A stretch of 63,712 nucleotides of DNA, filler included. It is 10 parts of 10 records of this genome, joined end to end, with 100 filler letters (N's around TTAATTAATTAA, not from the genome) between each part and the next. Parts side by side here need not be neighbours in the genome. Positions count along the whole stretch, not along the records: positions 46,107 to 50,963 come from SRR20825010_4416; 9 more parts are not named here. The stretch is one strand, 5' to 3'. Positions 11,744 through 59,844 of this stretch are shown here, piece after piece. The stretch's first letter is position 1; each line of letters starts with the position of its first letter. Made by a program: the position numbers and the translations under genes. Under the pieces are notes generated by a model. The model saw only the letters and a list, made by a program, of their open reading frames with translations, was not told the DNA's origin and did no database searches.

Positions 11744-11843
11744 NNNNNNNNNNNNNNNNNNNNNNNNNNNNNNNNNNNNNNNNNNNNTTAATTAATTAAN
11801 NNNNNNNNNNNNNNNNNNNNNNNNNNNNNNNNNNNNNNNNNNN
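11744..11843. other. Artificial contig spacer (first of nine; others at 19732, 25219, 32244, 41068, 46007, 50964, 54470, 59745)
   Basis: N44-TTAATTAATTAA-N44, 100 bp each, with stops in all six frames; gene context changes at each spacer. Confidence 0.98.
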
Positions 11844-19731: not shown

Positions 19732-19831
19732 NNNNNNNNNNNNNNNNNNNNNNNNNNNNNNNNNNNNNNNNNNNNTTAATTAATTAANNNNNNNNNNNNN
19801 NNNNNNNNNNNNNNNNNNNNNNNNNNNNNNN

Positions 19832-20105
19832 GGTCAAAACCTTCGTCGATCCCTCCATCCCGACCGACGGCATCGAGCCCGACCCGGCCCTTACCGTCGA
19901 TTCGGTGACCGACATCTGGCCCGGTGCTGAGTGGACCGAGCGCGAGGTGTTCGATATGTTCGGGATCCGTTTCCGGAATCACCCGGACCTGCGGCGGATC
20001 CTCACCTGGGAGGACTACCCCGGCCACCCGCTCCGCAAGGACTACCCGCTCCGCGGCCGCGGCGAGCGGGAGAGCTACCGGGTCGTGGACCGGACCTCCT
20101 CCTGA
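19832..20105 (+). CDS. nuoC: NADH-quinone oxidoreductase subunit C (5' truncated)
   Basis: [24 protein letters not shown]...[10 protein letters not shown]. Confidence 0.93.
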
Positions 20106-20164
20106 CGGCTGTTCGCGCAGGGCGCGATGACCCCATCCTCTCAAGGTACAGGTTGCCCGTCTGA

Positions 20165-20203
20165 TTGCGGACTAATTAATGATCAATTAGTTCGCGTCCG
20201 CAA
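20165..20203. promoter_or_regulatory. AT-rich palindrome upstream of the PEP-CTERM gene
   Basis: GCGGACTAATT-N7-AATTAGTTCGC, plus outer TTGCGGAC/GTCCGCAA, in a very GC-rich contig. Confidence 0.45.
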
Positions 20204-20325
20204 ACCTTGAAAAATCTTGTTGCATGCCGGTGCTATTTGGTGCATGCTAAGAGCCTCAGCGGGGATTCCCCCGAGCCGCGCGATGTCGCGTGGGGTTGGA
20301 TTTGTGGACAAGAAGGAGAGTTGCT

Positions 20326-20928
20326 ATGAGGAGTTCGCTCGTCAGGGCCGCGATCTGCGTGGTCCCAGTTCTGATTGTGGGCCAGGCCGCGACGGCCCAG
20401 ATCATTCACCCGCTGGAGGGTCTTGATCCCTCCGGATTCAACACCAACAACCCGGGATCGTGGTTCCGCGGCTACGAGTTCACCGTGGCCGGCGACGGCG
20501 TGACCGCCGTCGAGATCGGCATGCGGACCCCCGCCTCGGGCGAGGCCGTGACGCTGCAGATCTGGGATGTCAACTCACAGACGCTGCTCACGTCCGCCGC
20601 GGCCAGGACCCACGGCAACTCGTGGCAGTACTACGACGTCCCCGACGTCGCTCTCGCCAACGGCGGCACCTACGTCGTCGGCATCCTCGCGCAGAACAAC
20701 AGCGCGAACTACTTCTTCCAGAGCGGCCTCGGCAACGAGTGGTACCCGACCGGCGTGATCAACTACAACACGATGCGCTTCAACGGCGGTGACGGCTCGT
20801 TCCCGACCAGCACTCTCGACGGCTACCACTACGGCGTGGTCGATCTCGGCTACACCATTCCCGCCCCGGCCAGCGCCGCGCTGCTGGCGATGGGCGGCAT
20901 CGCCGCCGTGCGTCGCCGCAGGGCCTGA
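20326..20928 (+). CDS. PEP-CTERM (PAP variant) exported protein
   Basis: AAGGAG RBS, signal peptide, C-terminal IPAPASAALLAMGGIAAVRRRRA. Confidence 0.88.
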   Translation: MRSSLVRAAICVVPVLIVGQAATAQIIHPLEGLDPSGFNTNNPGSWFRGYEFTVAGDGVTAVEIGMRTPASGEAVTLQIWDVNSQTLLTSAAARTHGNSWQYYDVPDVALANGGTYVVGILAQNNSANYFFQSGLGNEWYPTGVINYNTMRFNGGDGSFPTSTLDGYHYGVVDLGYTIPAPASAALLAMGGIAAVRRRRA

Positions 20929-20969
20929 GTGAACCCCGGATCCAACGATCCGTGGCAAGCACGCAACCG

Positions 20970-21004
20970 AACCGCCCGGCCCGCACGGCCGGGCGGTTTC
21001 TTTT
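20970..21004 (+). terminator. Rho-independent terminator
   Basis: AACCGCCCGGCC-cgcac-GGCCGGGCGGTT-TCTTTT. Confidence 0.8.
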
Positions 21005-21036
21005 GAGATGCAGAGCGCGTTCCCTCGGGCGGGTGA

Positions 21037-24000
21037 TCAGCGGGGGATGACAACGGTGCTCGGGTCGACCACGTCCACACGGTCGCTCAGCAGGTCCCAG
21101 ATCAACGCCGACGCCGTCATCGGTGAGCCGGTCTGCCGGTCCAGGATCCGGACAGTACCGGATCCCTCGGCCAGCGCTCGCGCGATCCCCGCGTCGGGGT
21201 CATACTCCACGACGTCGGCGGTGAGCTCCTGCGTGTCGGTGCGCAGATAGACATTCTCTGTCGCGATCGCCGACCGGAGGCCGCCGAAGAGGTCTTCCGG
21301 ATCGTCGCCCTCACTGGGAGCGAAGTTGATCCGCAGCCGCATCGATTCGAGGATCGCTCTGGAGCCGTCCCGCGTGTTGGTGTGGCTCATCTGCACGGTG
21401 TCGAGCATCTCGGCCTGGCCCAGCGCGCGGTCGGCGTGGAGCGAGCCGGCCCAGTCGAACAACGCGGCCCCGCGCTGATCGCCATCGTCCGCCGGTGCGT
21501 CGGGCGTCTCATCGGCCGGCACGCGCAGATCGGCGACGAACAGCCGTCCGCGCCCGGGAACGTCAAGCGTCCCCGCGGTGTTGTCCGAGACGATCTCAAT
21601 GCCGCTCAGACGGAACGCACGCTCGAGCGGGGGCTCGGACTCCGATGCATCGGACGGATCCGGCAGGGGCTCGACGAAGCGTGCGGACTCGACCGTCGCG
21701 AGTTCCTCACCGAGTCCCAGGTGCGCTGCGCTCGCCGCGTAGACGGTCCGGATCGGCCGGTCCTGCCCGCCGAGCGCGTCGAGGCCCTCTTCGCTGCCGT
21801 CGTCGGTTGTGGCCGACGCCGTTTCCGCAACCGCTGGCTCGAGCTCCACGCGCAGCTCGGCCGCGGCGATGGTCTCGCGAGTCCAGGGGTCGGGGCGGTT
21901 GATCGCCCGCACCTCGCCCGCGGCTTCGAGCAGGCCCGCCGCGTCGTCAAACGCCATGCCCTGAGTCCACTCTGCGGTGACCCGTGAGGCGGTATCGCCC
22001 TTGCCGGCGCTGTGGTCGAACATCCCCGGTCCGGTCACGATCGCGGTTCGTTCGAGCCCTCGCAGCGTGACCGATTCGCCCTTGATGACCGTCGGGCCGC
22101 GGGCGACGTGGGCGAGTGCGCCGTCGTGCTGGACCTCGAGCAGTTCGGCATCGAGGTCGGCGAACAGCTGTTCGCCGCGGATCTCGATCTGGTCTGTGTA
22201 CCGCCGGAACCGGACCGCGCCGTCACCCCAGGCCTTTGCGACCTCGAGGCCGCCGCCCTCGGGTGTGCGGAGGGTGGCGTACAGGTGCTCGGCGTCGACC
22301 TTGGCGGTCCGGTCGCGGAAGCTCGCCCGGCCCTGCGCGTCGAAAGACGTCGGCTGGGGTTCATCGGTGTTGGGCGCGAAGGCGACATCGAGCGCATCGC
22401 ACGTGCCGCCGTTGCCCTGGCCGTCGCTCAGGCTCACCGTGTCGCGCGCGATCAGGCGGCGGAGCTTGGAGCCGCCGGATTCCCCGATGTCGAAGTAGGC
22501 GTGCAGGAAGTCGGACTTGAGGGTCGAGTCGGCGTCGGAGGCGACCACGCTGCCCTCGCAGATCACCTCGCGCAGCTCGCCGGTGACACGCCCGTCGCGG
22601 GCCGCGAACCGGAGCGTCGTCCGCTCGCGCGCATCGAGCTTGCTGACCTTGTCGTTGGCGACCACGCCGAACGGCCCGGGCACGAGGCCGTCGCCGGTGC
22701 CGAGGTCGAGCTCGAGCCGTCCCATGGTGGCCCGGCCCATGGTCGGCGAGGTCAGGAAGACGCTGCTCTCCTGTGAAGGTCCGCTCAGGATCAGTCGCTG
22801 CGAGGTGAAGCCGTACTCCACCGTCGCCGCCCGACCGCTCGCGTCGGACGCCCGATCGGCGAACGTTACGACGCCGCTGCGCTCGGCGGTGAATCTGGCG
22901 AGCAGATCGTTCTCGGAGAGCTCGTCCGGCTCGAGCGCGAGCGGTTTGATCTCCAGCAACCCCGACCACCGCAGCACCGCGTCCTCGGTGACCGGAGCGA
23001 TTTCGGTCTCTGTCTCCTCGGCGGTCTCGGTCCCGCCGCTGCCCGCGGGCTGAGAACGGGAGGGTGATTGATCCTCAGCTCCCGTCGATGTCGGCCCTTC
23101 TGCTTCCACCGAATCTGGCTCCGCGGCGTCCGCGGTGTCCGCCGCATCCGCCGACTCTGCACTCGCGGGCGTGATCTCGACGCTCGCGATCGCACCCTCG
23201 GGGAGGGCGTTGTCGATCGTTCTGGCAAAGAGATCCAGGCGGTCGCTGGCGATGTTGTGCCCTGCGCGGTCGAGGCGGACATCGTCGCGCATCACGGCTT
23301 GATACAGCGTCACCACCGGCGGTGGGGGGAGGGGGGCTGGCTCGGCGTCGGCCGCGCCTCCGGACTCGGCCCGCGCCGCGCTGTCACGCGGTGTGGCACC
23401 GGCCTCCGGCGTTTCCGACGCCGGTGCCGGCTCGGGCTCGGCGGGGTCCTTCACGGCGAAGGCGGTGAGCACGCCACCCTGGCGGACGGTCAGCAGTTCC
23501 AGCCGCTCGAGCGTCTGGTTGATCAGCAGCTTCGCGTCTCCGGCCCGAAACTCGTACCCCGGGGAGCTCAGCACGAACGGTTCGGTCGTCGAGACCTCGC
23601 CCAGCGTCGCGTCGAAGGTCAGCGACTCGCCGGTCCACGTCATCGAGGGCTCGTCACGGTCCGGGTCCGGCCTGCCACCATCGAGCGGCACGCCGAACAG
23701 GCGGACAACAACGTTGTTCCGCAGCGTGCCCGTCTCCGGCGTCTTCGTGCGGTCCGGCATCACCATCGTGCCGCCCTCGGCACGGATGTGCGCGACGCGC
23801 CCGTCGTCGAGATAGAACGTCGCCCGCGGCTGCGTGACCTCGTACCGCTGAGCCTGCAGCGGCGTGATCGTCTCCGAGCGGAACTCGGCCGAGACGCGGT
23901 CCCGGTTGTCCCGGTCCATGACCTGGATCTGCAGCCCCTTCGCGCCCGAGTCCTCGCCCAGCAGGCTCCCGTCGGCACCGCTGGCAAAGGCCCCGTCGCT

Positions 24001-24135
24001 GTCGGCCTCTCCCCCGCTCGGGGCCGTGGTGACCGCGCGGACCAGGATGACTCCCACCGCGAGCACGCAGACCAACGCCGCGCCGACAGCCACGTAGAAA
24101 CCGAGCGGACGAGATGCCTTGGCGGGTGGTGTCAT
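21037..24135 (-). CDS. Large membrane-anchored protein with repeated LptC/LptA(OstA)-like beta-jellyroll segments
   Basis: Single N-terminal TM; repeated patterns such as IRAEGG, WTGESLTFD, GRAATVEY, IRGEQLFAD, LTADVVEYD, MTASALIWD; directly downstream of kdsD. Confidence 0.65.
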   Translation of the reverse strand: MTPPAKASRPLGFYVAVGAALVCVLAVGVILVRAVTTAPSGGEADSDGAFASGADGSLLGEDSGAKGLQIQVMDRDNRDRVSAEFRSETITPLQAQRYEVTQPRATFYLDDGRVAHIRAEGGTMVMPDRTKTPETGTLRNNVVVRLFGVPLDGGRPDPDRDEPSMTWTGESLTFDATLGEVSTTEPFVLSSPGYEFRAGDAKLLINQTLERLELLTVRQGGVLTAFAVKDPAEPEPAPASETPEAGATPRDSAARAESGGAADAEPAPLPPPPVVTLYQAVMRDDVRLDRAGHNIASDRLDLFARTIDNALPEGAIASVEITPASAESADAADTADAAEPDSVEAEGPTSTGAEDQSPSRSQPAGSGGTETAEETETEIAPVTEDAVLRWSGLLEIKPLALEPDELSENDLLARFTAERSGVVTFADRASDASGRAATVEYGFTSQRLILSGPSQESSVFLTSPTMGRATMGRLELDLGTGDGLVPGPFGVVANDKVSKLDARERTTLRFAARDGRVTGELREVICEGSVVASDADSTLKSDFLHAYFDIGESGGSKLRRLIARDTVSLSDGQGNGGTCDALDVAFAPNTDEPQPTSFDAQGRASFRDRTAKVDAEHLYATLRTPEGGGLEVAKAWGDGAVRFRRYTDQIEIRGEQLFADLDAELLEVQHDGALAHVARGPTVIKGESVTLRGLERTAIVTGPGMFDHSAGKGDTASRVTAEWTQGMAFDDAAGLLEAAGEVRAINRPDPWTRETIAAAELRVELEPAVAETASATTDDGSEEGLDALGGQDRPIRTVYAASAAHLGLGEELATVESARFVEPLPDPSDASESEPPLERAFRLSGIEIVSDNTAGTLDVPGRGRLFVADLRVPADETPDAPADDGDQRGAALFDWAGSLHADRALGQAEMLDTVQMSHTNTRDGSRAILESMRLRINFAPSEGDDPEDLFGGLRSAIATENVYLRTDTQELTADVVEYDPDAGIARALAEGSGTVRILDRQTGSPMTASALIWDLLSDRVDVVDPSTVVIPR

Positions 24136-24171
24136 AGGTGGGGATCGTATCGCGCCCGGCCACCCGGCGGC

Positions 24172-25218
24172 TCAGACGCCCGAGGCACCCGTCCCGCCCT
24201 GTTCGCCCCGCACCAGCCGCATCGCGATCAGGTCCTGCACGTCCAGCACGCCAACGGGCTCGCCCGCCGCGTCCACGATGGGGATCTCGTCCACGCGGCG
24301 TTCGCGGGTCAGCAGCACCGCGTCGCGGACCAGCGCCGTCTCGGCCAGCGAGACCGGCGAACGGGTCATCACGGTCGCGATCGGCTCGCGCATCCACTCG
24401 CCCGGGCCCTGCTCGGAGAGCTTCCGCCGCAGGTCGGCATCGGTGAAGATCCCCGTCAGCCGGCCGCCGGCGTCCACGATCAGCACCGCCCCGGCCCTGC
24501 GCCCGGGCCCTGCGCCGATGGCCTCGAGGATCGGCGTCGACTCGCCCACGGTCGGGCAGTTGGGGCCGATGCGGATCCGGAGGATGTCGCCGACGGGGCG
24601 GAGCAATCCGCCGAGTGTGCCGCCGGGGTGGCGCTCGGCAAAGTCGGCATCGGTGAAGCACCGCCGCCTCGCGGCCGCGAGTGCGAGGGCGTCGCCCAGC
24701 ACCAGCGTCGCCGTGGACGAGGCGGTGGGGGCCTCGGGGCCCTCGCCGGCTTCGGCAAACTCTCCGAGGTGGAGGGCGACGGTCGCGAGGCGTTCGAGGC
24801 TGCTCGGCGCGCGCGCGCTGTCGGTTTCGTCCTGCCGCGGCGGCGTTCCCCCGGTGATGCTGATGATCGGCAGCTTGTCCTGCCGCAGGATCGCCGCGAG
24901 GTTGACCACCTCGTCGGTCTCGCCCGAGCGGCTCAGGCAGATGACGGTGTCTGTCCGCCGGAAGCGGCCCAGGTCGCCGTGGGCCGCCTCGGCGGGGTGG
25001 ACGGGGTGGGAGGGGATGCCGAGCGAGGCCAGCGTCGCGGAGATCTTCGCCCCGATCAGCCCGCTCTTGCCCAGGCCGGTGACGAGCACGGTGCCGCCGG
25101 CCTCGGCGCAGGCGACCAGCAGCGAGACGGCCTCGACGAAGGACGCGTCGAGCAGGTCGGCGGTCGCCCGGATCGCCCCGACCTCGGCGGCGTAGACCCG
25201 GCGGGCGTAGGCCAACTC
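24172..25218 (-). CDS. kdsD: Arabinose-5-phosphate isomerase, KpsF/GutQ family (5' truncated)
   Basis: TGLGKSGLIG, HPAEAAHGDLG, SRSGET, APTASST, HPGGTLG, CBS pair. Confidence 0.92.
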   Translation of the reverse strand, partial: ELAYARRVYAAEVGAIRATADLLDASFVEAVSLLVACAEAGGTVLVTGLGKSGLIGAKISATLASLGIPSHPVHPAEAAHGDLGRFRRTDTVICLSRSGETDEVVNLAAILRQDKLPIISITGGTPPRQDETDSARAPSSLERLATVALHLGEFAEAGEGPEAPTASSTATLVLGDALALAAARRRCFTDADFAERHPGGTLGGLLRPVGDILRIRIGPNCPTVGESTPILEAIGAGPGRRAGAVLIVDAGGRLTGIFTDADLRRKLSEQGPGEWMREPIATVMTRSPVSLAETALVRDAVLLTRERRVDEIPIVDAAGEPVGVLDVQDLIAMRLVRGEQGGTGASGV

Positions 25219-25318
25219 NNNNNNNNNNNNNNNNNNNNNNNNNNNNNNNNNNNNNNNNNNNNTTAATTAATTAANNNNNNNNNNNNNNNNNNNNNNNNNN
25301 NNNNNNNNNNNNNNNNNN

Positions 25319-32243: not shown

Positions 32244-32343
32244 NNNNNNNNNNNNNNNNNNNNNNNNNNNNNNNNNNNNNNNNNNNNTTAATTAATTAAN
32301 NNNNNNNNNNNNNNNNNNNNNNNNNNNNNNNNNNNNNNNNNNN

Positions 32344-41067: not shown

Positions 41068-41167
41068 NNNNNNNNNNNNNNNNNNNNNNNNNNNNNNNNN
41101 NNNNNNNNNNNTTAATTAATTAANNNNNNNNNNNNNNNNNNNNNNNNNNNNNNNNNNNNNNNNNNNN

Positions 41168-46006: not shown

Positions 46007-46108
46007 NNNNNNNNNNNNNNNNNNNNNNNNNNNNNNNNNNNNNNNNNNNNTTAATTAATTAANNNNNNNNNNNNNNNNNNNNNNNNNNNNNNNNNNNNNN
46101 NNNNNNAG

Positions 46109-46690
46109 GAGCCGACAGTAGCGGGTGGCAACCTGTTCAAGTCCGAGTGGCTGCAAGAGCATGACCAGCCGCCGAAGTTGAGATGGCGTGCGATCTACGT
46201 CGATACGGCCCAAAAGACCAAGGAACGAAACGATTACACCGTCTTTGAGCATTGGGGATGCGGCGAGGATGGGAAGGCATACTTGCTCGACCTGGTGCGC
46301 GGCAGGTTTGAGGCGCCGGAACTTGAAAGCACAGCTCTCAGCCTATGGGCGCGCTGCAAGGAAATGGACGCCAATCAATATGGCGTTCTTCGCAAGATGG
46401 CTGTCGAGGACAAGGTGTCTGGAACAGGGCTTATTCAGGGCCTCAGGCGCAAGTCCACCCCCGTGGTGGCGATCCAGCGCGACAAAGACAAGTTGACCCG
46501 CGGCCTCGATGCTGTGCCGGCTGTCGCCGCCGGCCTGGTGTCGATCCCCCGGAATGCGCCATGGCGCAAGACCTTCGTGTCCGAGTTGTTGGCATTCCCT
46601 GATGGCTCTTTCGATGACCAGGTGGACCCGTTCATGGATGCAGTGACGGAAATCTGTGGCGGCACAACCAATATCTGGGAAGCACTGTAG
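46109..46690 (+). CDS. Phage terminase large subunit, nuclease domain (5' truncated)
   Basis: EPTVAGGNLFK, DTAQKTKERNDY, VEDKVSGTGLIQ, FPDGSFDDQVD; frame open from the contig start. Confidence 0.92.
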   Translation, partial: EPTVAGGNLFKSEWLQEHDQPPKLRWRAIYVDTAQKTKERNDYTVFEHWGCGEDGKAYLLDLVRGRFEAPELESTALSLWARCKEMDANQYGVLRKMAVEDKVSGTGLIQGLRRKSTPVVAIQRDKDKLTRGLDAVPAVAAGLVSIPRNAPWRKTFVSELLAFPDGSFDDQVDPFMDAVTEICGGTTNIWEAL

Positions 46691-48502
46691 ATGGCCAATA
46701 TCCTGACAAAGGTTCGCGATGGGCTTGCAAGCCTGACGTCCGGTCTGGGGACAGAACGCGACAAGGCGGCGTCGGTCTACTATGCCGAGCCGGAAATTGA
46801 CGAACAGCAGCTTGTCAATGCCTATCGGGGATCGTGGCTTCCTCGGAAGATCGTGGATATCCCGGCACTCGATTCATGCCGGAATTGGCGTGACTGGCAG
46901 GCGAAGGCAAAGCAGATCGAGCTTCTGGAGGCTGAGGAAAAGCGCCTTGGCGTCAAGGCAAAGGTGCTGGAAGCGCGCAAGAAGGCGCGGTTGTTCGGCG
47001 GGGCGGCGATCTATTTCGATGTGGGTGACAATGACCCGGCCAAGCCGCTGAACCTTGAGGTAGTGAAGAAGGGGGGCATTCGCTTCCTGACCGTCCTGAC
47101 CACACGCCAGCTTACGCCAGGCGACATCGAGCAGGACCCGCTCTCGGAGTTCTACGGGAAGCCGAAGGATTACCAGATCAATTCGACCACGCTGGGCATG
47201 GTGAGGATACATCCCACGCGCCTGGTCATCTTTGTTGGAAACGAGCATCCTGACAATGATATCGCATCCGGCCTCAAGCACGGATGGGGCGACAGCGTGT
47301 TGGTATCTGTGATGGAGGCGGTGAAGCAGGCGGATGCAACCTCCGCCAATATCGCCAGTCTGGTGTTCGAGGCCAAGATCGACGTGATCACCGCTGAGGG
47401 CTTTGCAGACGCGGTGAAAGACCCGGTGCAGGAACAGGCGATCCGCAACCGCTATCGGCTTGCTGCGACGATGAAGGGCAACAACGGCATGCTGTTGCTC
47501 GATGCCAAGGAGTCATACGAACAGAAGAACGGCCAGTTTTCCACCTTGCCGGATATCATGGATCGGTTCTTCCAGAACGTGTCTGGCGCTGCAGACATTC
47601 CGATGACGCGCCTGTTTGGCCAATCGCCAGGCGGGCTCAACGCCACGGGCGAAAGCGACATGCGCAATTACCATGATCGGATCCAGTCGGCGCAGGAGCT
47701 CGAAATGCAGCCGGCCATGTTCCGATTGGATGAAGCTTTGATCCGTTCCGCTCTCGGAACCCGCGATCCAAGCGTGTTCTATGTCTGGGCACCGCTGGAG
47801 CAGATGTCAGAGAAGCAGAAGGCCGACATTCTCAAGATCAAAGCGGATGCGGGTCGAGCGATCGCCGGCACTGGCGGGGCTTCCCCGTCTCTCATGCCTA
47901 TCGAGGCCCTGTCTGACGCACTCGTCAATTCTCTTGTCGAGGATGGTAGCTTGCCGGGGCTTGAAGCCGCCATCGCCAAATATGGCGGTCTGGACGATCA
48001 AGATGACGACGACGACGATCTGGTCGCAGCGGCAGCGCCGGCACATGAAGAGCGGCAGCAAACCGCCGACGCTGCACCGCGCACGCTGTACGTGCGAAGA
48101 GATGTGGTGAACAAGTCCGATATCATCCGGTGGGCAAAGTCACAGGGCTTTAAGGACATAGTGCCCGATCTTCATGTCACCATCGCGTACAGCCGCGCAC
48201 CGGTAGACTGGTTCAAGGTCGGAAACTCATGGTCGGAGAAGCTGGATATCGCTGCCGGTGGGCCGCGCCAGATGGAACGGCTGGGCGATGACGGACGCTA
48301 TTTCGCGCTCCTGATCACCGCCAACGAATTGGTCTGGCGTCATCGCGAGATTGTCGAGGCCGGCGCCTCGTGGGATTGGCCAGACTATCAGCCACATATC
48401 TCGATCCAGATTGGCGGTGATGTCGACCTGACGAAGATCGAACCCTATCGGGGGCGCATCGTGCTTGGCCCGGAAGTCTTTGAAGAGGTCCGGGAGGACT
48501 GA
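46691..48502 (+). CDS. Phage portal (DUF1073/HI1409 family) fused to a C-terminal Acb1-like 2H phosphoesterase
   Basis: Portal motifs YRGSWLPRKIVDIPA, ARLFGGA, WGDSVL, AADIPMTRLFGQSPGGLNATGESD; tail has LHVTIAYSR and DYQPHISI. Confidence 0.88.
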   Translation: MANILTKVRDGLASLTSGLGTERDKAASVYYAEPEIDEQQLVNAYRGSWLPRKIVDIPALDSCRNWRDWQAKAKQIELLEAEEKRLGVKAKVLEARKKARLFGGAAIYFDVGDNDPAKPLNLEVVKKGGIRFLTVLTTRQLTPGDIEQDPLSEFYGKPKDYQINSTTLGMVRIHPTRLVIFVGNEHPDNDIASGLKHGWGDSVLVSVMEAVKQADATSANIASLVFEAKIDVITAEGFADAVKDPVQEQAIRNRYRLAATMKGNNGMLLLDAKESYEQKNGQFSTLPDIMDRFFQNVSGAADIPMTRLFGQSPGGLNATGESDMRNYHDRIQSAQELEMQPAMFRLDEALIRSALGTRDPSVFYVWAPLEQMSEKQKADILKIKADAGRAIAGTGGASPSLMPIEALSDALVNSLVEDGSLPGLEAAIAKYGGLDDQDDDDDDLVAAAAPAHEERQQTADAAPRTLYVRRDVVNKSDIIRWAKSQGFKDIVPDLHVTIAYSRAPVDWFKVGNSWSEKLDIAAGGPRQMERLGDDGRYFALLITANELVWRHREIVEAGASWDWPDYQPHISIQIGGDVDLTKIEPYRGRIVLGPEVFEEVRED

Positions 48503-48505
48503 ACC

Positions 48506-49636
48506 ATGCAATTCACTGACAGTATCACCGTCGCGGGAACGCGGCGGCGCGATGACGGCTACCTTGTTGCCGATGCTCGCGTGGCCAGGACCGGCATCCA
48601 GAACTATGCGGGATGGGAAGTCGGCAAACCGCAAATGCCTGTCGTGCGGGTCTATCGACCGCCTGATGAAGTTTTTTCCCGTGATGCCATGGCGTCCTTC
48701 GCCCATCGCCCGATCACAAATGATCATCCCGACGAAGATGTCACCGCCGACAACTGGAAAGAACTGGCTGTCGGGCAGTCGGGCGATGAAGTCGCAAGAG
48801 ACGGCACGTTTCTGCGCATCCCACTGATGGTGGCGGACGGGAAGATGATCTCCGGCATCGAGGGGGGCAAGCGCCAGCTCTCAGCCGGCTACATGGCCAC
48901 GCTGGATTGGACTGCGGGAAAAACTGCCGATGGTGAGCATTACGACGCCATCCAGCGCAATATTCGAGCCAACCATATCGCCGTCGTGCACCAAGGTCGC
49001 GCCGGCTCCGAGGTTCGTATCGGTGACGATGCGAATAAATGGGGCGCTGCCCCGATCACTCCAACCATGGATAAGGAGACCATCACCATGAGTGATGCAC
49101 TTCGCACTGTGGTCGTGGACGGGCTGTCGGTGAGCACCACCGATCAGGGCGCCCAGGCCATTGACAAGCTCCAGAAGGACGCGGCAGCGCTCCAGACGAA
49201 GCTTTCCGATGCTGAGACGGCCCACAAGAAGGCCCTCGACGCGAAAGACACGGAACTGGCCGAGAAGGACGCCAAGATCGCGGACCTCGAGAAGAAGGTC
49301 ATCGACGCTGCGGCGCTCGATGCGCTGGTGCAGGCGCGAGCCGATCTCGTCGGCAAGGCAAAAGCACTCGCCCCTGACGTCAAGACGGAAGGCGTTGCTG
49401 ACGCTGACATCCGAAAGGCCGTTGTCATCGCCAAGCGCGGCGAGGATGCCGTGAAGGACAGAAGTGCTGCCTACATCGATGCGGCCTTCGACTTCATTGC
49501 CGAAGACGCGGGCAAGGGCGATGGCGATCAGGTCCGCGATGCCCTGAAAGGTGGCCTCAAGGCTGCTGACGCAAACGGCGCATGGTCGGACAGCGTTTTC
49601 GCTGCCGCCGGTGTCCAGACGAAGAAGGAGGCCTAA
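48506..49636 (+). CDS. DUF2213 putative prohead protease/scaffold
   Basis: DGYL, ARTGIQNY, PITNDHP, QLSAGY, NHIAVV..GRAG..VRIGD, then a helical tail. Confidence 0.88.
   Translation: MQFTDSITVAGTRRRDDGYLVADARVARTGIQNYAGWEVGKPQMPVVRVYRPPDEVFSRDAMASFAHRPITNDHPDEDVTADNWKELAVGQSGDEVARDGTFLRIPLMVADGKMISGIEGGKRQLSAGYMATLDWTAGKTADGEHYDAIQRNIRANHIAVVHQGRAGSEVRIGDDANKWGAAPITPTMDKETITMSDALRTVVVDGLSVSTTDQGAQAIDKLQKDAAALQTKLSDAETAHKKALDAKDTELAEKDAKIADLEKKVIDAAALDALVQARADLVGKAKALAPDVKTEGVADADIRKAVVIAKRGEDAVKDRSAAYIDAAFDFIAEDAGKGDGDQVRDALKGGLKAADANGAWSDSVFAAAGVQTKKEA
49088..49636 (+). CDS. Putative nested in-frame scaffold protein (182 aa)
   Basis: TAAGGAG at 49072-49078 precedes in-frame ATG 49088, just after the protease domain. 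Confidence 0.55.
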   Translation: MSDALRTVVVDGLSVSTTDQGAQAIDKLQKDAAALQTKLSDAETAHKKALDAKDTELAEKDAKIADLEKKVIDAAALDALVQARADLVGKAKALAPDVKTEGVADADIRKAVVIAKRGEDAVKDRSAAYIDAAFDFIAEDAGKGDGDQVRDALKGGLKAADANGAWSDSVFAAAGVQTKKEA

Positions 49637-49639
49637 TCC

Positions 49640-50002
49640 ATGGCAACTCTCACCGAAGGCAAGCGTACGGCCGATTTCATCGTCTCCGAGGCGAACGGCT
49701 ATCGCTCCCGTGAAAAGGGCATCATCGATACCGGCGTTACCGGCACGATTGAGCCCGGCACTGTGGTCGGCATCGTCACCGCGACGGGCCATTACGCCAC
49801 CTACAATCCCGGCAATGCGGACGGGACAGAAACGGTTGCGGGCGTTCTCTACGAGGGCGGCGCGGCTGATGACGAACGCACTGTGATGGTGCGGGATTGC
49901 GAGGTTCGCGCCTCTGATCTCGCTTGGTTTGACGGTGCCACCACCAACCAGATCGAAACCGGGACGGAAGCACTCGCCGCTCTCGGGATCGTGGCACGAT
50001 AA
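49640..50002 (+). CDS. Head decoration protein (lambda gpD-like)
   Basis: FIVSEANGYRSRE, PGTVVG, YNP...DGTE...GVL, LAALGI; lies between protease and capsid genes. Confidence 0.85.
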   Translation: MATLTEGKRTADFIVSEANGYRSREKGIIDTGVTGTIEPGTVVGIVTATGHYATYNPGNADGTETVAGVLYEGGAADDERTVMVRDCEVRASDLAWFDGATTNQIETGTEALAALGIVAR

Positions 50003-50016
50003 GGAGGGCCGACAAA

Positions 50017-50963
50017 ATGGCTTCCATGGACGTCTTCAATTCCTCGGCCTTCAGCATGGTCTCGCTGACCGGGGCAGTCGACAAGATCGACTACAAGCCG
50101 CAGTTGCTCGGCCAGCTCGGAATCTTCGAACCGATGCCGGTGCGAACCCGCACTGTGTTCGTGGATCGGCGCAACGGCTCGCTGACGCTCATCCCGTCCA
50201 GCCCCACCGGTGCACCTCCCACGGAACTGGAAGGCGATGACCGCGACGCGGTATCGCTACGCACCACGCGCCTTGCAAAGAGTTTCACGCTCTACGCCGA
50301 GGAAGTGCAGGGTATCCGCCAGTTCGGATCCGAAACCGAACTGATGCAGGTGCAGGCCGAATATATGCGCCGCATGGCGCGCATCCGCGACGATATGGAC
50401 CTCACCCATGAGTACCATCGTCTGGGCGCCCTGCAGGGCAAGTTGCTCGATGCTGACGGAACGACCGTGATCTACAACTACTTCACGGAATTCGGCATCG
50501 CGGAGCCCTCGGCAATCGACTTTGCCCTGACCACGGACACAACCAATGTCCGCGGCAAGTGTTCGCAGGTGATCCGCTTGATGCAGCGGGCAGCCAAGGG
50601 AGCATTCACGCCGGCCACCACAGTACATGCCCTTGTGGGCGACACGTTCTATGACAACCTCATCGATCATCCGAACGTGCGCGACACCTACAAGAACTGG
50701 GCCGCTGCTGCTGAACTGCGCCAGAACCTCACTTTCCGCAGCTTCCCCTACGGCGGAATCACGTTCCACAACTACCAGGGCACGGATGACAACTCGACGG
50801 TGGCAATCGCCGCCAATGAGGCGAAATTCTTCCCGGTGGGCGCGCGTGACGTGTTCAAGAAGGCAATGGCGCCGGCCGAGTTCGGCCCGTACGTCAACAC
50901 TGCCGGGCAGGACGTATACGCCCTGAATATCCCCGACCGGGATCGTCAGGCTTGGACCAAGGG
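50017..50963 (+). CDS. Major capsid protein (lambda gpE-like, 3' truncated)
   Basis: FSMVSLT, EVQGIRQFGSE, THEYHRLGALQG, FPYGGITF; AAGGAGG RBS. Confidence 0.9.
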
Positions 50964-51063
50964 NNNNNNNNNNNNNNNNNNNNNNNNNNNNNNNNNNNNN
51001 NNNNNNNTTAATTAATTAANNNNNNNNNNNNNNNNNNNNNNNNNNNNNNNNNNNNNNNNNNNN

Positions 51064-52023
51064 ATTGAATGCTTCAACAATGGTCAGATCGGGGCGCTGG
51101 CGTTTCAGTTCAGCCAGTGCTTTGGAAACACCCTCGCCCACCTCCACTTCGCTGGCGCCCTTGCTTCGCGTAATTTCGAAACCCACCACTTCCTGGCCAT
51201 TGAGCAGTGCCTGTGAACGGCGATCGGCCACCGTGTCGGAAATGGTTGAAATTTCCGTCAGCTTCACGCGGCGGCCATTGCTCAAGACAATCGAAATGTC
51301 TTTAAGCTGATTCGCATTTTCAACTTTGGCAATGGTGCGCAAGGGTTGTTCACCCACACCCAGGTCAGCACGACCACCCGCAGTTTCCAGTTGCGTGTTG
51401 CGCAACTGGCGCGACACATCCAGCGCGCTTACACCCAGGGCCTGCATTTTCAGGGGGTCCAGTTCAACCAGCACCTGGCGGTTTACACCGCCCACGCGGC
51501 TTACTGCACCCACGCCCTTGACGCTTAACAGGGTTTTGGTGATGGTGTCGTCGACGTACCAGGACAAGCCTTCTTCATCAAATGCGGTGGACGCAATGGT
51601 GTAGGCCAAAACAGGCGAGCCGCTTAGTTCTACTTTGTTGATCACCGGGTCACGCAGGTCAGTGGGCAGATCTGCCCGCACGCGCGACACGGCCGACCGA
51701 ACATCGTCCACGGCTTCCTGCGTATTTTTCTCCAGATTGAATTCAACCGTGATGCTGACCACACCGTCCTGAATTTTGGTGTAGATGTGTTTGAGCTGCT
51801 GCAGCGTGGCCAGCGAGTTTTCAATTTTCCGCGCCACATCATTTTCAAGCTGGGAAGGCGATGCGCCTGGCAGGCTGGCTGTGACCAGCACGGTGGGCAA
51901 TTCGATGTCGGGGAACTGCTGAATTTTCATGGTGGCAAAGCTGTACAGCCCCGCCACGGTCAACAGAAAAAACAGCATGACCGAGGGAATTGGATTCTGG
52001 ATGGACCAGGTGGAAACGTTCAC
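51064..52023 (-). CDS. RND efflux permease, AcrB family (3' truncated)
   Basis: WSIQNPIP, FPDIELP, PGASP, VSRVRADLP, VELDP. Confidence 0.93.
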
Positions 52024-53277: not shown

Positions 53278-53535
53278 ATGAAAGTTGAGCTGGTTACCAA
53301 CCTGAAACGCCAGGCCACAAAAATTCTTGCAGACTTACATACGTCCAAAGAACCAGTGCTGATTACCGAGCATGGGCAACCATCTGCTTATCTTGTAGAT
53401 GTTCAGGATTACGAATTCATGCAACATCGGCTTGACTTGCTTGAGGGCTTGTCGCGCGGCGAGCGCGCGGTACTTGAGGGCAGAACACTTGGCCACGCCG
53501 ACGCAAAAGAGAAAATGAGCAAGTGGCTGAAATAA
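53278..53535 (+). CDS. Phd/YefM family antitoxin
   Basis: LKRQATKIL, PVLITEHGQPSAYLV. Confidence 0.9.
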   Translation: MKVELVTNLKRQATKILADLHTSKEPVLITEHGQPSAYLVDVQDYEFMQHRLDLLEGLSRGERAVLEGRTLGHADAKEKMSKWLK

Positions 53536-53837
53536 TCTGGACTGAGCCAGCGCTTCAAGAACTGAATGACATCGCTGAATACATCGCCTTGGACAACTTG
53601 ATCGCAGCCCGCAAGCTGGTTGAACGAATTTTCAAAAGCGTTGAACGTTTACAGAATTTTCCGAAATCCGGGCGCATTCCGCCCGAACTACCGAGTTCTG
53701 TTTACCGGGAAATTATTGTTCCGCCGTGCCGAATTTTCTACCGTTTAGAAGAAAAGCGAGTGCTGATTCTTTTCGTATTGAGGCAAGAAAGACAACTACG
53801 GACTTACATGCTAACGGGCGGTGATTCACCGGATTAA
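53523..53837 (+). CDS. RelE/ParE family toxin
   Basis: IIWTEPALQEL..IAEYIALDN, FPKSGR.PPE, RIFYR; overlaps the antitoxin gene. Confidence 0.9.
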   Translation: MAEIIWTEPALQELNDIAEYIALDNLIAARKLVERIFKSVERLQNFPKSGRIPPELPSSVYREIIVPPCRIFYRLEEKRVLILFVLRQERQLRTYMLTGGDSPD

Positions 53838-53894
53838 GCGCCACTGTGCTGCAGAAACTTGTTACCCTTTAACATTCAAATGCAAGCGACCGCC

Positions 53895-54469
53895 ATGACC
53901 CGCATCCCCATTCCACGCTTTGATGACAACTATTCCGAAGAGGCCGCCAAGGCCCGCCGCGAATTTTTAACGCAGCAAACCGGTGCCAACCTGCAACACA
54001 CCGGCACCTATTCCCTGCCCCCCGAAAATTTGAAAAGCAACACCGAGAATTTTATCGGCGTGGTGCAAATGCCGGTGGGCGTGGCCGGGCCGGTGTTGAT
54101 CCACGGTGAGCACGCGCAAGGCTGGTTTTATGTTCCACTGGCCACAACCGAAGGCACACTGGTCGCGAGTTATAGCCGTGGCATGCGCATGGTCAGTGAA
54201 TCGGGTGGTGTGAAGGTCACCGTGACCGAGGAATTCATGCAGCGCGCCCCGCTGTTTGAATTCGAAGATGCCCGTGCCGCCAAACGGTTTTTAAACTGGC
54301 TTGATGAAAACCTGAACACCATCAAGACCGAGGCTGAAAAAACCACCGGCTTTGGCAAGCTTCAACACATTCAAACCTGGCAAGTTGCACGCATGGTGTA
54401 CACGCGTTTTAACTACACCACGGGCGATGCAGCCGGGCAGAACATGTGCGGCAAAGCCACCCATGCGGC
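53895..54469 (+). CDS. Class I-type HMG-CoA reductase (3' truncated)
   Basis: ENFIG, PVGVAGP, VPLATTEGTLVASYSRG, TTGDAAGQNM. Confidence 0.88.
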
Positions 54470-54570
54470 NNNNNNNNNNNNNNNNNNNNNNNNNNNNNNN
54501 NNNNNNNNNNNNNTTAATTAATTAANNNNNNNNNNNNNNNNNNNNNNNNNNNNNNNNNNNNNNNNNNNNC

Positions 54571-59744: not shown

Positions 59745-59844
59745 NNNNNNNNNNNNNNNNNNNNNNNNNNNNNNNNNNNNNNNNNNNNTTAATTAATTAA
59801 NNNNNNNNNNNNNNNNNNNNNNNNNNNNNNNNNNNNNNNNNNNN

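Follow-up and report, generated by a model that had tools for sequence, protein, structure and literature searches.

A portal gene that continues into an Acb1-family domain

The window analysed here, the whole stretch of 63,712 nucleotides, is composed of ten contigs, 3.4-11.7 kb long, with artificial linkers of 100 nt between them (44 N, then TTAATTAATTAA, then a further 44 N). On one of these contigs, at positions 46691-48502 of the plus strand, lies a gene for the portal protein of a tailed phage or prophage that ends in a domain of the Acb1 family, a group of 2H phosphodiesterases named for their action against CBASS, a system of antiphage signalling based on cyclic oligonucleotides. The open reading frame (ORF) opens with ATG directly after the terminase stop codon and encodes 603 amino acids (aa) with no internal stop; it was assigned by Pfam, by PHROG and by alignment with the portal of cyanophage Pam3. 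The preliminary description had read it as one uninterrupted ORF consisting of a portal core, an acidic linker and a C-terminal 2H tail with paired HxT/S motifs at H495 and H569. This agrees with Pfam, with the translation and with a 98% identical 603-aa ORF in the independent isolate genome of Nitratireductor rhodophyticola (L004), and both motifs are present.

Residues 40-387 (positions 46808-47851, plus strand) form a portal core of the Phage_portal_3/DUF1073 type, matched by Pfam family PF06381 with an E-value of 6.5e-109 and a score of 364 bits (cut-off 33.8), and by the NCBIfam model TIGR01555 (HI1409 phage-associated family) over aa 10-395 with 273.8 bits against a cut-off of 196.25. 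The portal-like sequence extends to about aa 434 (position 47992), and portals that are free of the domain align over aa 1-434. Both in sequence and in fold the portal is matched by the portals of Pam3, E217 and Pa193. PHROG 146, labelled 'portal protein', runs over aa 4-599 (profile positions 19-580 of 587), which means that the Acb1-type domain is already part of that phage family profile.

Behind the portal comes a linker (aa 435-463, positions 47993-48079, plus strand) with an acidic run, DDQDDDDDD (aa 435-443), an Ala-rich stretch and the residues D460-A-A-P463 ahead of the domain. The domain occupies aa 464-603 (positions 48080-48499, plus strand), as delimited by Pfam, an AlphaFold2 (AF2) model, Foldseek and alignment with the Acb1 of Erwinia phage FBB1, and it is without a C-terminal lid. 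PF23474 (Acb1) covers it from profile position 1 to 140 of 144 (E 6.3e-34, 117.2 bits, cut-off 27). Its first catalytic motif, H495-V-T497 (positions 48173-48181, plus strand), stands in the stretch LHVTIAYSR and aligns with H44-T-T46 of FBB1 Acb1; the second, H569-I-S571 (positions 48395-48403, plus strand), stands in WDWPDYQPHISI and aligns with H114-I-T116. The first motif is invariant in alignments of 58 and of 52 relatives, and H569 is invariant in the former and at least 90% conserved in the latter.

In a model of the full-length protein there are two confident bodies, and the stretch that joins portal and domain, aa 437-458, lies past the crown helices (404-418 and 424-431) and has a predicted local distance difference test score (pLDDT) below 50. 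The linker after the crown helices is thus predicted by the model to be a disordered, acidic tether of about 25 residues. The independent ORF in L004 rules out a hidden frameshift or an assembly join between the two domains, and because the two-domain architecture also recurs in 119 of the 120 best matches of a database search (see below), the fusion is no sequencing accident. That a portal and an Acb1-family domain are really fused here is virtually certain.

Assignment of the domain to the Acb1 group

A comparison of the domain alone with all chains of the PDB brought up the portal of Pam3 (E 2.6e-42) and the Acb1 of FBB1 (7t26, E 3.3e-7), and two further rows were insignificant (E 0.16 and 1). 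An AF2 model of the domain, built from 58 relatives, has a pLDDT of 95 and a predicted TM-score (pTM) of 0.88. Foldseek ranks the two FBB1 Acb1 structures (7t26 and 7t27, apo and with product) first and second, with E-values of 1.1e-7 and 1e-6, TM-scores relative to the target (TMt) of 0.74 and 0.70 and 27% identity. Ranks 3 to 5 are taken by PDE-9, an Acb1-group phosphodiesterase of a Burkholderia phage, and E. coli LigT (5ldi) follows from rank 6 (E about 6e-4, TMt about 0.51, query-relative TM-score (TMq) 0.56, 13-15% identity). With tblastn against 50,697 phage records the domain matched 626 records, which include the T4-type gp57B genes and FBB1 Acb1 itself (E 6e-5). No Pfam family of LigT type matched the 603-aa protein at E<=1. 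A phage family labelled 'RNA ligase', phrog_755, matches aa 475-574 (E 1e-14). Whether the tail groups with Acb1 or with the LigT/ThpR RNA-repair enzymes was a test that the preliminary description had set beforehand, and Pfam, Foldseek (by TMt) and tblastn give the same answer; these results support the placement of the domain in the Acb1 group and not with LigT/ThpR.

Active-site residues and the missing lid

For a comparison by residue we took the FBB1 Acb1 sequence from its genome record. The numbering of Hobbs et al. is off by one against this sequence past residue ~100, so the mapping of ligand residues rests on the alignment. The FBB1 tetrad H44, T46, H114 and T116 aligns with H495, T497, H569 and S571, the second motif having Ser in place of Thr. 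Y467 stands opposite FBB1 Y12, W561/W563 opposite the aromatic pair Y106/Y108, E595 opposite E139 and E598/E599 opposite E142/E143. According to the available portion of Hobbs et al. (2022, PMC9117128), the aromatics of Acb1 that stack on the bases are Y12, W74, F107 and W147, a Glu reads the adenine, and a flexible C-terminal lid (residues 145-152) closes over the ligand. At the position aligned to FBB1 residue 74 the present protein has E529, which is not an aromatic and which belongs to a stretch, G-G-P-R-x-x-E, with almost no variation across the clade (52 relatives). The protein ends in ...FEEVRED, four residues past the FEEV of the last strand, where FBB1 goes on with LDLEWSDKD, and neither the C-terminal lid nor its Trp has a counterpart in the 603 aa.

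This short end is shared by many relatives. Among 335 relatives with the GPExF motif, a set enriched in close relatives of the query, 175 are equally short (stop within 6 residues and no aromatic), 115 keep a Trp-bearing tail (...EDW...) and the remainder vary. In the accessible text of Doherty et al. (2025, 10.1101/2025.08.21.671373), T4 Acb1 without residues 145-152 fails to trigger Panoptes. The same source, in the parts at hand, states that the lids of 2H enzymes may occupy either terminus and that lid-deleted PDE-9 still degrades its preferred substrate. The absence of the lid therefore lowers the expectation of Acb1-like activity but does not remove it. The wording 'intact Acb1-like' of the preliminary description is correct for the catalytic tetrad, which is intact; it needs a qualifier for the C-terminal end, where the lid with its Trp is missing.

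Conservation of the domain

Of 335 relatives in which the domain is fully covered, 326 have the paired H-x-T/S motif, and the other 9 have one substituted tetrad residue each. Against five genomic relatives the ratio of nonsynonymous to synonymous substitution rates (dN/dS) lies at 0.075-0.127 in the domain, as compared with 0.046-0.198 in the portal core. For the four distant relatives among them (L001-L003 and L005) identity is 74-86% in the domain as against 59-69% in the core, and the linker is least conserved (46-57%). The domain is under purifying selection.

Distribution of the fusion and its longer relatives

A search with aa 455-603 against a collection of 5.8 billion proteins gave 1518 candidates of 331-1056 aa, with at least 1126 clusters at E<=0.001. 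Both Pfam domains are present in 119 of 120 among the matches listed, which are mostly from rhizobia, and the names given by NCBI and UniRef include 'anti-CBASS protein Acb1 family protein', which many clusters bear, as well as 'phage portal protein' and 'DUF1073 domain-containing protein'. The caution in the preliminary description that the fusion might be catalogued already was thus well placed, as seen from the NCBI product name and from the number of clusters. For shorter proteins (81-261 aa), 81 of 113 candidates match, and many of these come from contigs 1-2 kb long. When 1.84 billion representatives were searched exhaustively, 1852 matches were obtained (1418 at E<=1e-10). In the best 150 of these 1852 a portal core is detectable in 120 and not in 30; of those 120, 86 have the Acb1 domain at the very end, 20 have more sequence behind it and 14 are partial. 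Among the phages in culture 1807 records match, and 33 of these span at least 80% of the fusion, Pam3 included; the groups that bear it are Synechococcus, Rhizobium, Pseudomonas (phiPSA1-type), Aminobacter and Sinorhizobium phages.

Close portals also occur without the domain. In Rhizobium phage RHph_N28_2 the portal has 481 aa and shares 57.6% identity with aa 1-434, after which it ends with no Acb1 domain, and in Edwardsiella phage ZHS (vB_EpM_ZHS) an Acb1-like gene stands separately, just upstream of the portal gene. Judged from the gene sequences, these comparisons show the Acb1 domain to be an optional accessory module of portals in this family.

There are also longer relatives (P0146, P0161, P0197, P0173, P0230 and P0225 represent the effector-string proteins), of which P0146, P0161 and P0197 carry two or three effector domains behind the portal. 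The arrangements seen include portal-Acb1-Zeta-type kinase-ADP-ribosyltransferase (1467 aa), portal-Acb1-Zeta kinase (1172 aa), portal-Acb1-...-ADP-ribosyltransferase (2054 aa), portal-...-FAD oxidoreductase-Acb1 (1469 aa) and Acb1 with three ADP-ribosyltransferase stretches behind it (1188 aa). P0225 (550 aa) has Acb1 joined to a DUF2213 head protease.

An Acb1-prohead protease fusion was also considered for the records of Roseobacter phage DSS3P8 and phage ZHS and was rejected, as the proteins are short, free and Acb1-like: gp129 of DSS3P8 (L009, 3989-4441) has 150 aa and ZHS_4 (L010, 2116-2715) has 199 aa, both with the two His motifs and both labelled 'prohead protease'. These labels are probably annotation errors. 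It may also be mentioned that in Rhizobium phage RHph_TM3_3_3 a 673-aa hypothetical protein (L008, 7201-9222) is encoded between the portal-Acb1 and DUF2213-like genes, and that RHph_N28_2 has a 119-aa ORF in the same slot; this slot is possibly another variable site for head cargo.

The contig and its head module

The fusion gene lies on a phage or prophage contig of 4857 bp (positions 46107-50963, plus strand) that holds part of a head-morphogenesis module and is bounded on both sides by linkers read directly from the sequence, at 46007-46106 towards a hemC-hemY contig on the left and at 50964-51063 towards an acrB fragment on the right (no strand applies to either). The nine linkers of the window are at 11744-11843, 19732-19831, 25219-25318, 32244-32343, 41068-41167, 46007-46106, 50964-51063, 54470-54569 and 59745-59844. 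Being linkers between contigs, they imply that hemY and the acrB fragment are not real neighbours of the phage genes, and the idea of a decayed prophage remnant between hemY and acrB is ruled out by the two flanking ones. Likewise, the ORFs that touch linkers are cut by contig ends and not by decay: the N-terminal third of AcrB (51064-52023), half of an HMG-CoA reductase (53859-54469), the tail of an ABC1 kinase (54571-), the tail of a patatin (59874-), and, on the phage contig itself, the terminase and the capsid gene.

Upstream of the fusion is the 3' part of the terminase large subunit with its nuclease domain only (46109-46690, plus strand; Terminase_6C of Pfam, TIGR01630, phrog_5573 and phrog_38), of which the last ~193 codons are left, the 5' part having been removed by the contig end. 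Downstream on the plus strand are a head maturation protease or scaffold-like protein of 376 aa (DUF2213; 48506-49636; PF09979, E 9.7e-56; phrog_530, labelled 'head maturation protease', E 1.7e-105), a head decoration protein of 120 aa resembling lambda gpD (49640-50002; PF02924, E 2.2e-30; phrog_49) and a major capsid protein resembling lambda gpE (50017-50963; PF03864, E 1.6e-84; phrog_29) that is cut by the contig end. The order terminase, portal, protease/scaffold, decoration and capsid is that of a head module. The placement of the ORF between terminase and protease in the preliminary description fits this gene order, with the reservation that the terminase is incomplete on the contig, and the late head-gene setting that it proposed is confirmed by the head maturation protease gene directly 3' of the fusion.

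From end to end the contig is 96.8% identical to a prophage region on a 1.2-Mb contig of L004, and the similarity to L004 does not reach beyond its bounds. The L004 module comprises a DnaB-type helicase, a terminase of 501 aa, the portal fusion, protease, decoration and capsid proteins, and continues with an adaptor, a head closure protein, a MuF-like head morphogenesis protein, a neck protein and the major tail protein. No RNA ligase or polynucleotide kinase was found in the module, neither on the contig nor in L004. A search for a CD-NTase (SMODS) match in the L004 host genome was also negative, and a cognate CBASS target is therefore not seen in that host. The hemC-hemY contig (41168-46006) matches the L004 genome in two patches only, at 71-73%. 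This contrast with 96.8% leaves the host of the phage contig uncertain: either the prophage has spread recently between distant hosts or a phage contig was binned with the wrong genome.

Known relatives and earlier accounts

Among solved structures FBB1 Acb1 is the best match in both sequence and fold (besides the Pam3 portal by sequence). With T4 gp57B and the FBB1 enzyme (7t26/7t27; PF23474; PMC9117128) the domain shares the compact 2H fold, the HxT/HxT(S) tetrad and a phage origin; it differs in that the Acb1 of T4-like phages stands alone as a protein about 150 aa long whereas here it forms the C-terminus of a portal, and identity to FBB1 Acb1 is 27-29%. PDE-9 of Burkholderia phage BCSR5 (9q2y/9q2g; 10.1101/2025.08.21.671373), the third-best fold match (TMq 0.72), is likewise of the Acb1 group and without a C-terminal lid, but it is a free protein and, as given in the available part of that preprint, its lid is formed by the N-terminal 15 residues. 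LigT/ThpR (5ldi) belongs to the 2H superfamily with the same motif pair but is larger, cellular and free-standing.

The same two-domain architecture is found end to end in the portal gp3 of Pam3 (8hds; Yang et al. 2023, PMC9942802), a protein of 621 aa whose chain 8hds_A aligns at residues 8-611 with aa 9-602 of the present protein (E 1.8e-172). Next to this full-length match, Acb1 7t26 came up with an E-value of 2.3e-6. The portal-Acb1 proteins of Pam3, phiPSA1, RHEph04-06, RHph_TM3_3_3, Erebus, Yong-M2-251 and HMSP1-Susan are 46-64% identical to it. Fusions of 2H domains to portal and MuF proteins have been described by Iyer et al. (2017, PMC5512222; 2022, PMC9503650), who, in the text available from both papers, work by comparative genomics only and propose that such proteins are packaged into the head, injected and degrade immune nucleotides. 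Their head-packaged polyvalent effectors are alike in that an effector is fused to a head component of the virion and encoded among head genes, but they hold several effector domains while the portal-Acb1 protein here holds one. The view in the preliminary description that no account of a virion role was known is thus not upheld, at least from the accessible portions of these papers, which already put forward packaging and injection. The portal-Acb1 fusion is therefore already known: it is catalogued, has an NCBI product name, is found in phages in culture and received a published interpretation in 2017 and again in 2022.

Within the accessible part of the literature that names Acb1 together with portal protein or DUF1073, we found no experimental account of the fusion, and the terms 'portal' and 'fused' are absent from Hobbs et al. 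2022 and Doherty et al. 2025. A demonstration of activity of a portal-borne Acb1, of its presence in virions or of its delivery was not found either. The remaining question is experimental rather than genomic, and since phages that carry the fusion are in culture (Pam3, phiPSA1, the RHEph phages, Erebus), activity, virion presence and delivery are directly testable. A modest twist of the present case is that the lid-less subclade offers a natural test of how important the Acb1 lid is.

Proposed role and alternatives

We consider it moderately likely that the protein is a tailed-prophage portal to which an accessory Acb1-family 2H phosphodiesterase is tethered for encapsidated delivery. In portals the crown and the C-terminus face the capsid interior, and for this reason 12 tethered copies of the enzyme would be enclosed within every procapsid; by analogy with other portals this step is very probable, and the 12 copies per portal ring of the preliminary description are a fair estimate on the same ground. 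The domain would cut 3'-5' cyclic oligonucleotide signals of the CBASS type by metal-independent acid-base catalysis, as Acb1 does, and despite the missing lid it is quite likely, again by analogy, to be an active phosphodiesterase on immune nucleotides. Encapsidation would then be the purpose of the fusion, the ready-made enzyme entering the next host along with the DNA, probably once cut from the portal; that head-internal carriers recur and that strings of effectors stand behind the same portal point to encapsidation as what the fusion is for. Since the domain is tethered to the portal it must be freed in order to act in the next host, and its release and delivery to the next cell is a step about which we are more hesitant, placing it somewhat short of probable.

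A possible site of release is the stretch D460-A-A-P463-R (aa 460-464, positions 48068-48082), which is in a low-confidence part of the model ahead of the first strand and in which D460 and P463 are at least 90% conserved among 52 relatives. Similar D-A-x-P sequences occur behind the domain or between modules in P0009, P0134, P0140, P0149, P0157, P0173 and P0197. The motif is short, and roughly 0.4 chance matches per 1000 aa would be expected from typical residue frequencies. It may be a processing site, or it may be an N-terminal lid element as in PDE-9. The portal in the Pam3 virion structure (8hds) has 442 of 621 residues modelled, and the Pam3 Acb1 domain (48% identical) is not among the Foldseek matches of our domain model; together these indicate that the Pam3 domain is either flexible or removed in mature heads. 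No proteomic statement on the size of the Pam3 portal was found in the cited genomics paper. With the protease gene adjacent, one may suppose that the DUF2213 protease cuts the D-A-x-P-R junction and so frees 12 lid-less Acb1-type enzymes per capsid for delivery with the DNA, which we offer as a tentative and rather unlikely version of the proposal. If true, cyclic-nucleotide immunity would be disarmed ahead of phage gene expression, and an anti-CBASS enzyme delivered by the virion would have been demonstrated for the first time, the novelty being in the demonstration and in the junction, as the idea is already published.

Several observations count against encapsidated delivery of an active anti-CBASS enzyme. 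Covalent attachment to the portal would bar the domain from leaving the capsid, and the protease/scaffold, decoration and capsid proteins of the phage do not contain D-A-x-P; the search of the head proteins and of the L004 neighbours gave a single match, in the terminase, so a protease-site reading has no support from self-processing, and the motif may instead belong to an N-terminal lid like that of PDE-9. On the side of activity there are the non-aromatic E529, the missing C-terminal lid together with the failure of lid-deleted T4 Acb1 to trigger Panoptes, and the 9 of 335 relatives with a substituted tetrad residue. To these are added the negative SMODS search in L004 and the searchable literature, in which no activity data on any portal-fused Acb1 member were found.

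Part of this evidence bears on whether the domain is an anti-CBASS enzyme at all. A 2H enzyme might instead act on 2',3'-cyclic phosphate RNA ends (tRNA repair of the LigT/ThpR kind) or on 2'-5' oligoadenylates, or be an RNase, and for this speak the phrog_755 match, the significance of LigT and other 2H enzymes in Foldseek (E 6e-4 to 1e-3) and the loss of the lid and of one base-stacking aromatic. According to the portion of Doherty et al. 2025 (10.1101/2025.08.21.671373) at hand, there are viral 2H groups that failed to cleave any of the 18 messengers tested, and an RNase role is also considered in the available text of Iyer et al. 2017 (PMC5512222). We nevertheless regard another substrate as improbable, given that Pfam returns Acb1 and no LigT-type family at E<=1, that Acb1 structures lead the Foldseek ranking with clearly higher TM-scores, that an RNA ligase or polynucleotide kinase is missing from the module on the contig and in L004, and that Y467, W561/W563 and E598/E599 are kept at positions aligned with the ligand contacts of Acb1. 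A catalytically idle appendage of the portal, such as an internal plug, a binder of DNA ends or an assembly aid, could explain the substituted tetrads in the 9 relatives and the domain being unresolved in the Pam3 virion. This is hardly credible given an unaltered tetrad in 326 of 335 relatives and a dN/dS of about 0.1; moreover, close portals function without the domain, which is thus not needed for portal structure.

The more serious alternative accepts the enzyme and questions its delivery. Here it would act only in the cell that produces the phage, where the portal, free or assembling, works in the cytoplasm and the encapsidated copies are a by-product, on the premise that the portal is made late, at the time when structural proteins trigger CBASS. 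The gene does belong to a late head module, the enzyme is covalently attached in the sequence, and no cleavage site has been demonstrated, D-A-x-P not occurring in the protease/scaffold, decoration and capsid proteins. Phage ZHS, with its separate Acb1-like gene in the same late module, suggests that co-expression alone may be the selected trait. Yet co-expression requires no fusion, and fusions to the portal C-terminus make up 120 of the best 150 matches, in addition to the DUF2213 fusion and the multi-effector strings; 12 copies per capsid would also be a poor dose for the cytoplasm unless the portal were made in large excess. We take action confined to the producing cell to be possible and distinctly less probable than delivery of the enzyme within the capsid.

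Other contigs of the window

Contig 19832-25218 has a G+C content of 69.9% as against 53.8-63.7% in the other nine, a further sign that the joined contigs may derive from more than one genome. On a separate contig of 3.4 kb, a gene for a ParE-family toxin (53523-53837; Pfam E 1e-20) is overlapped by an upstream ORF of 85 codons (53278-53535), and the region 53278-53837 is probably a toxin-antitoxin pair of the ParDE type.

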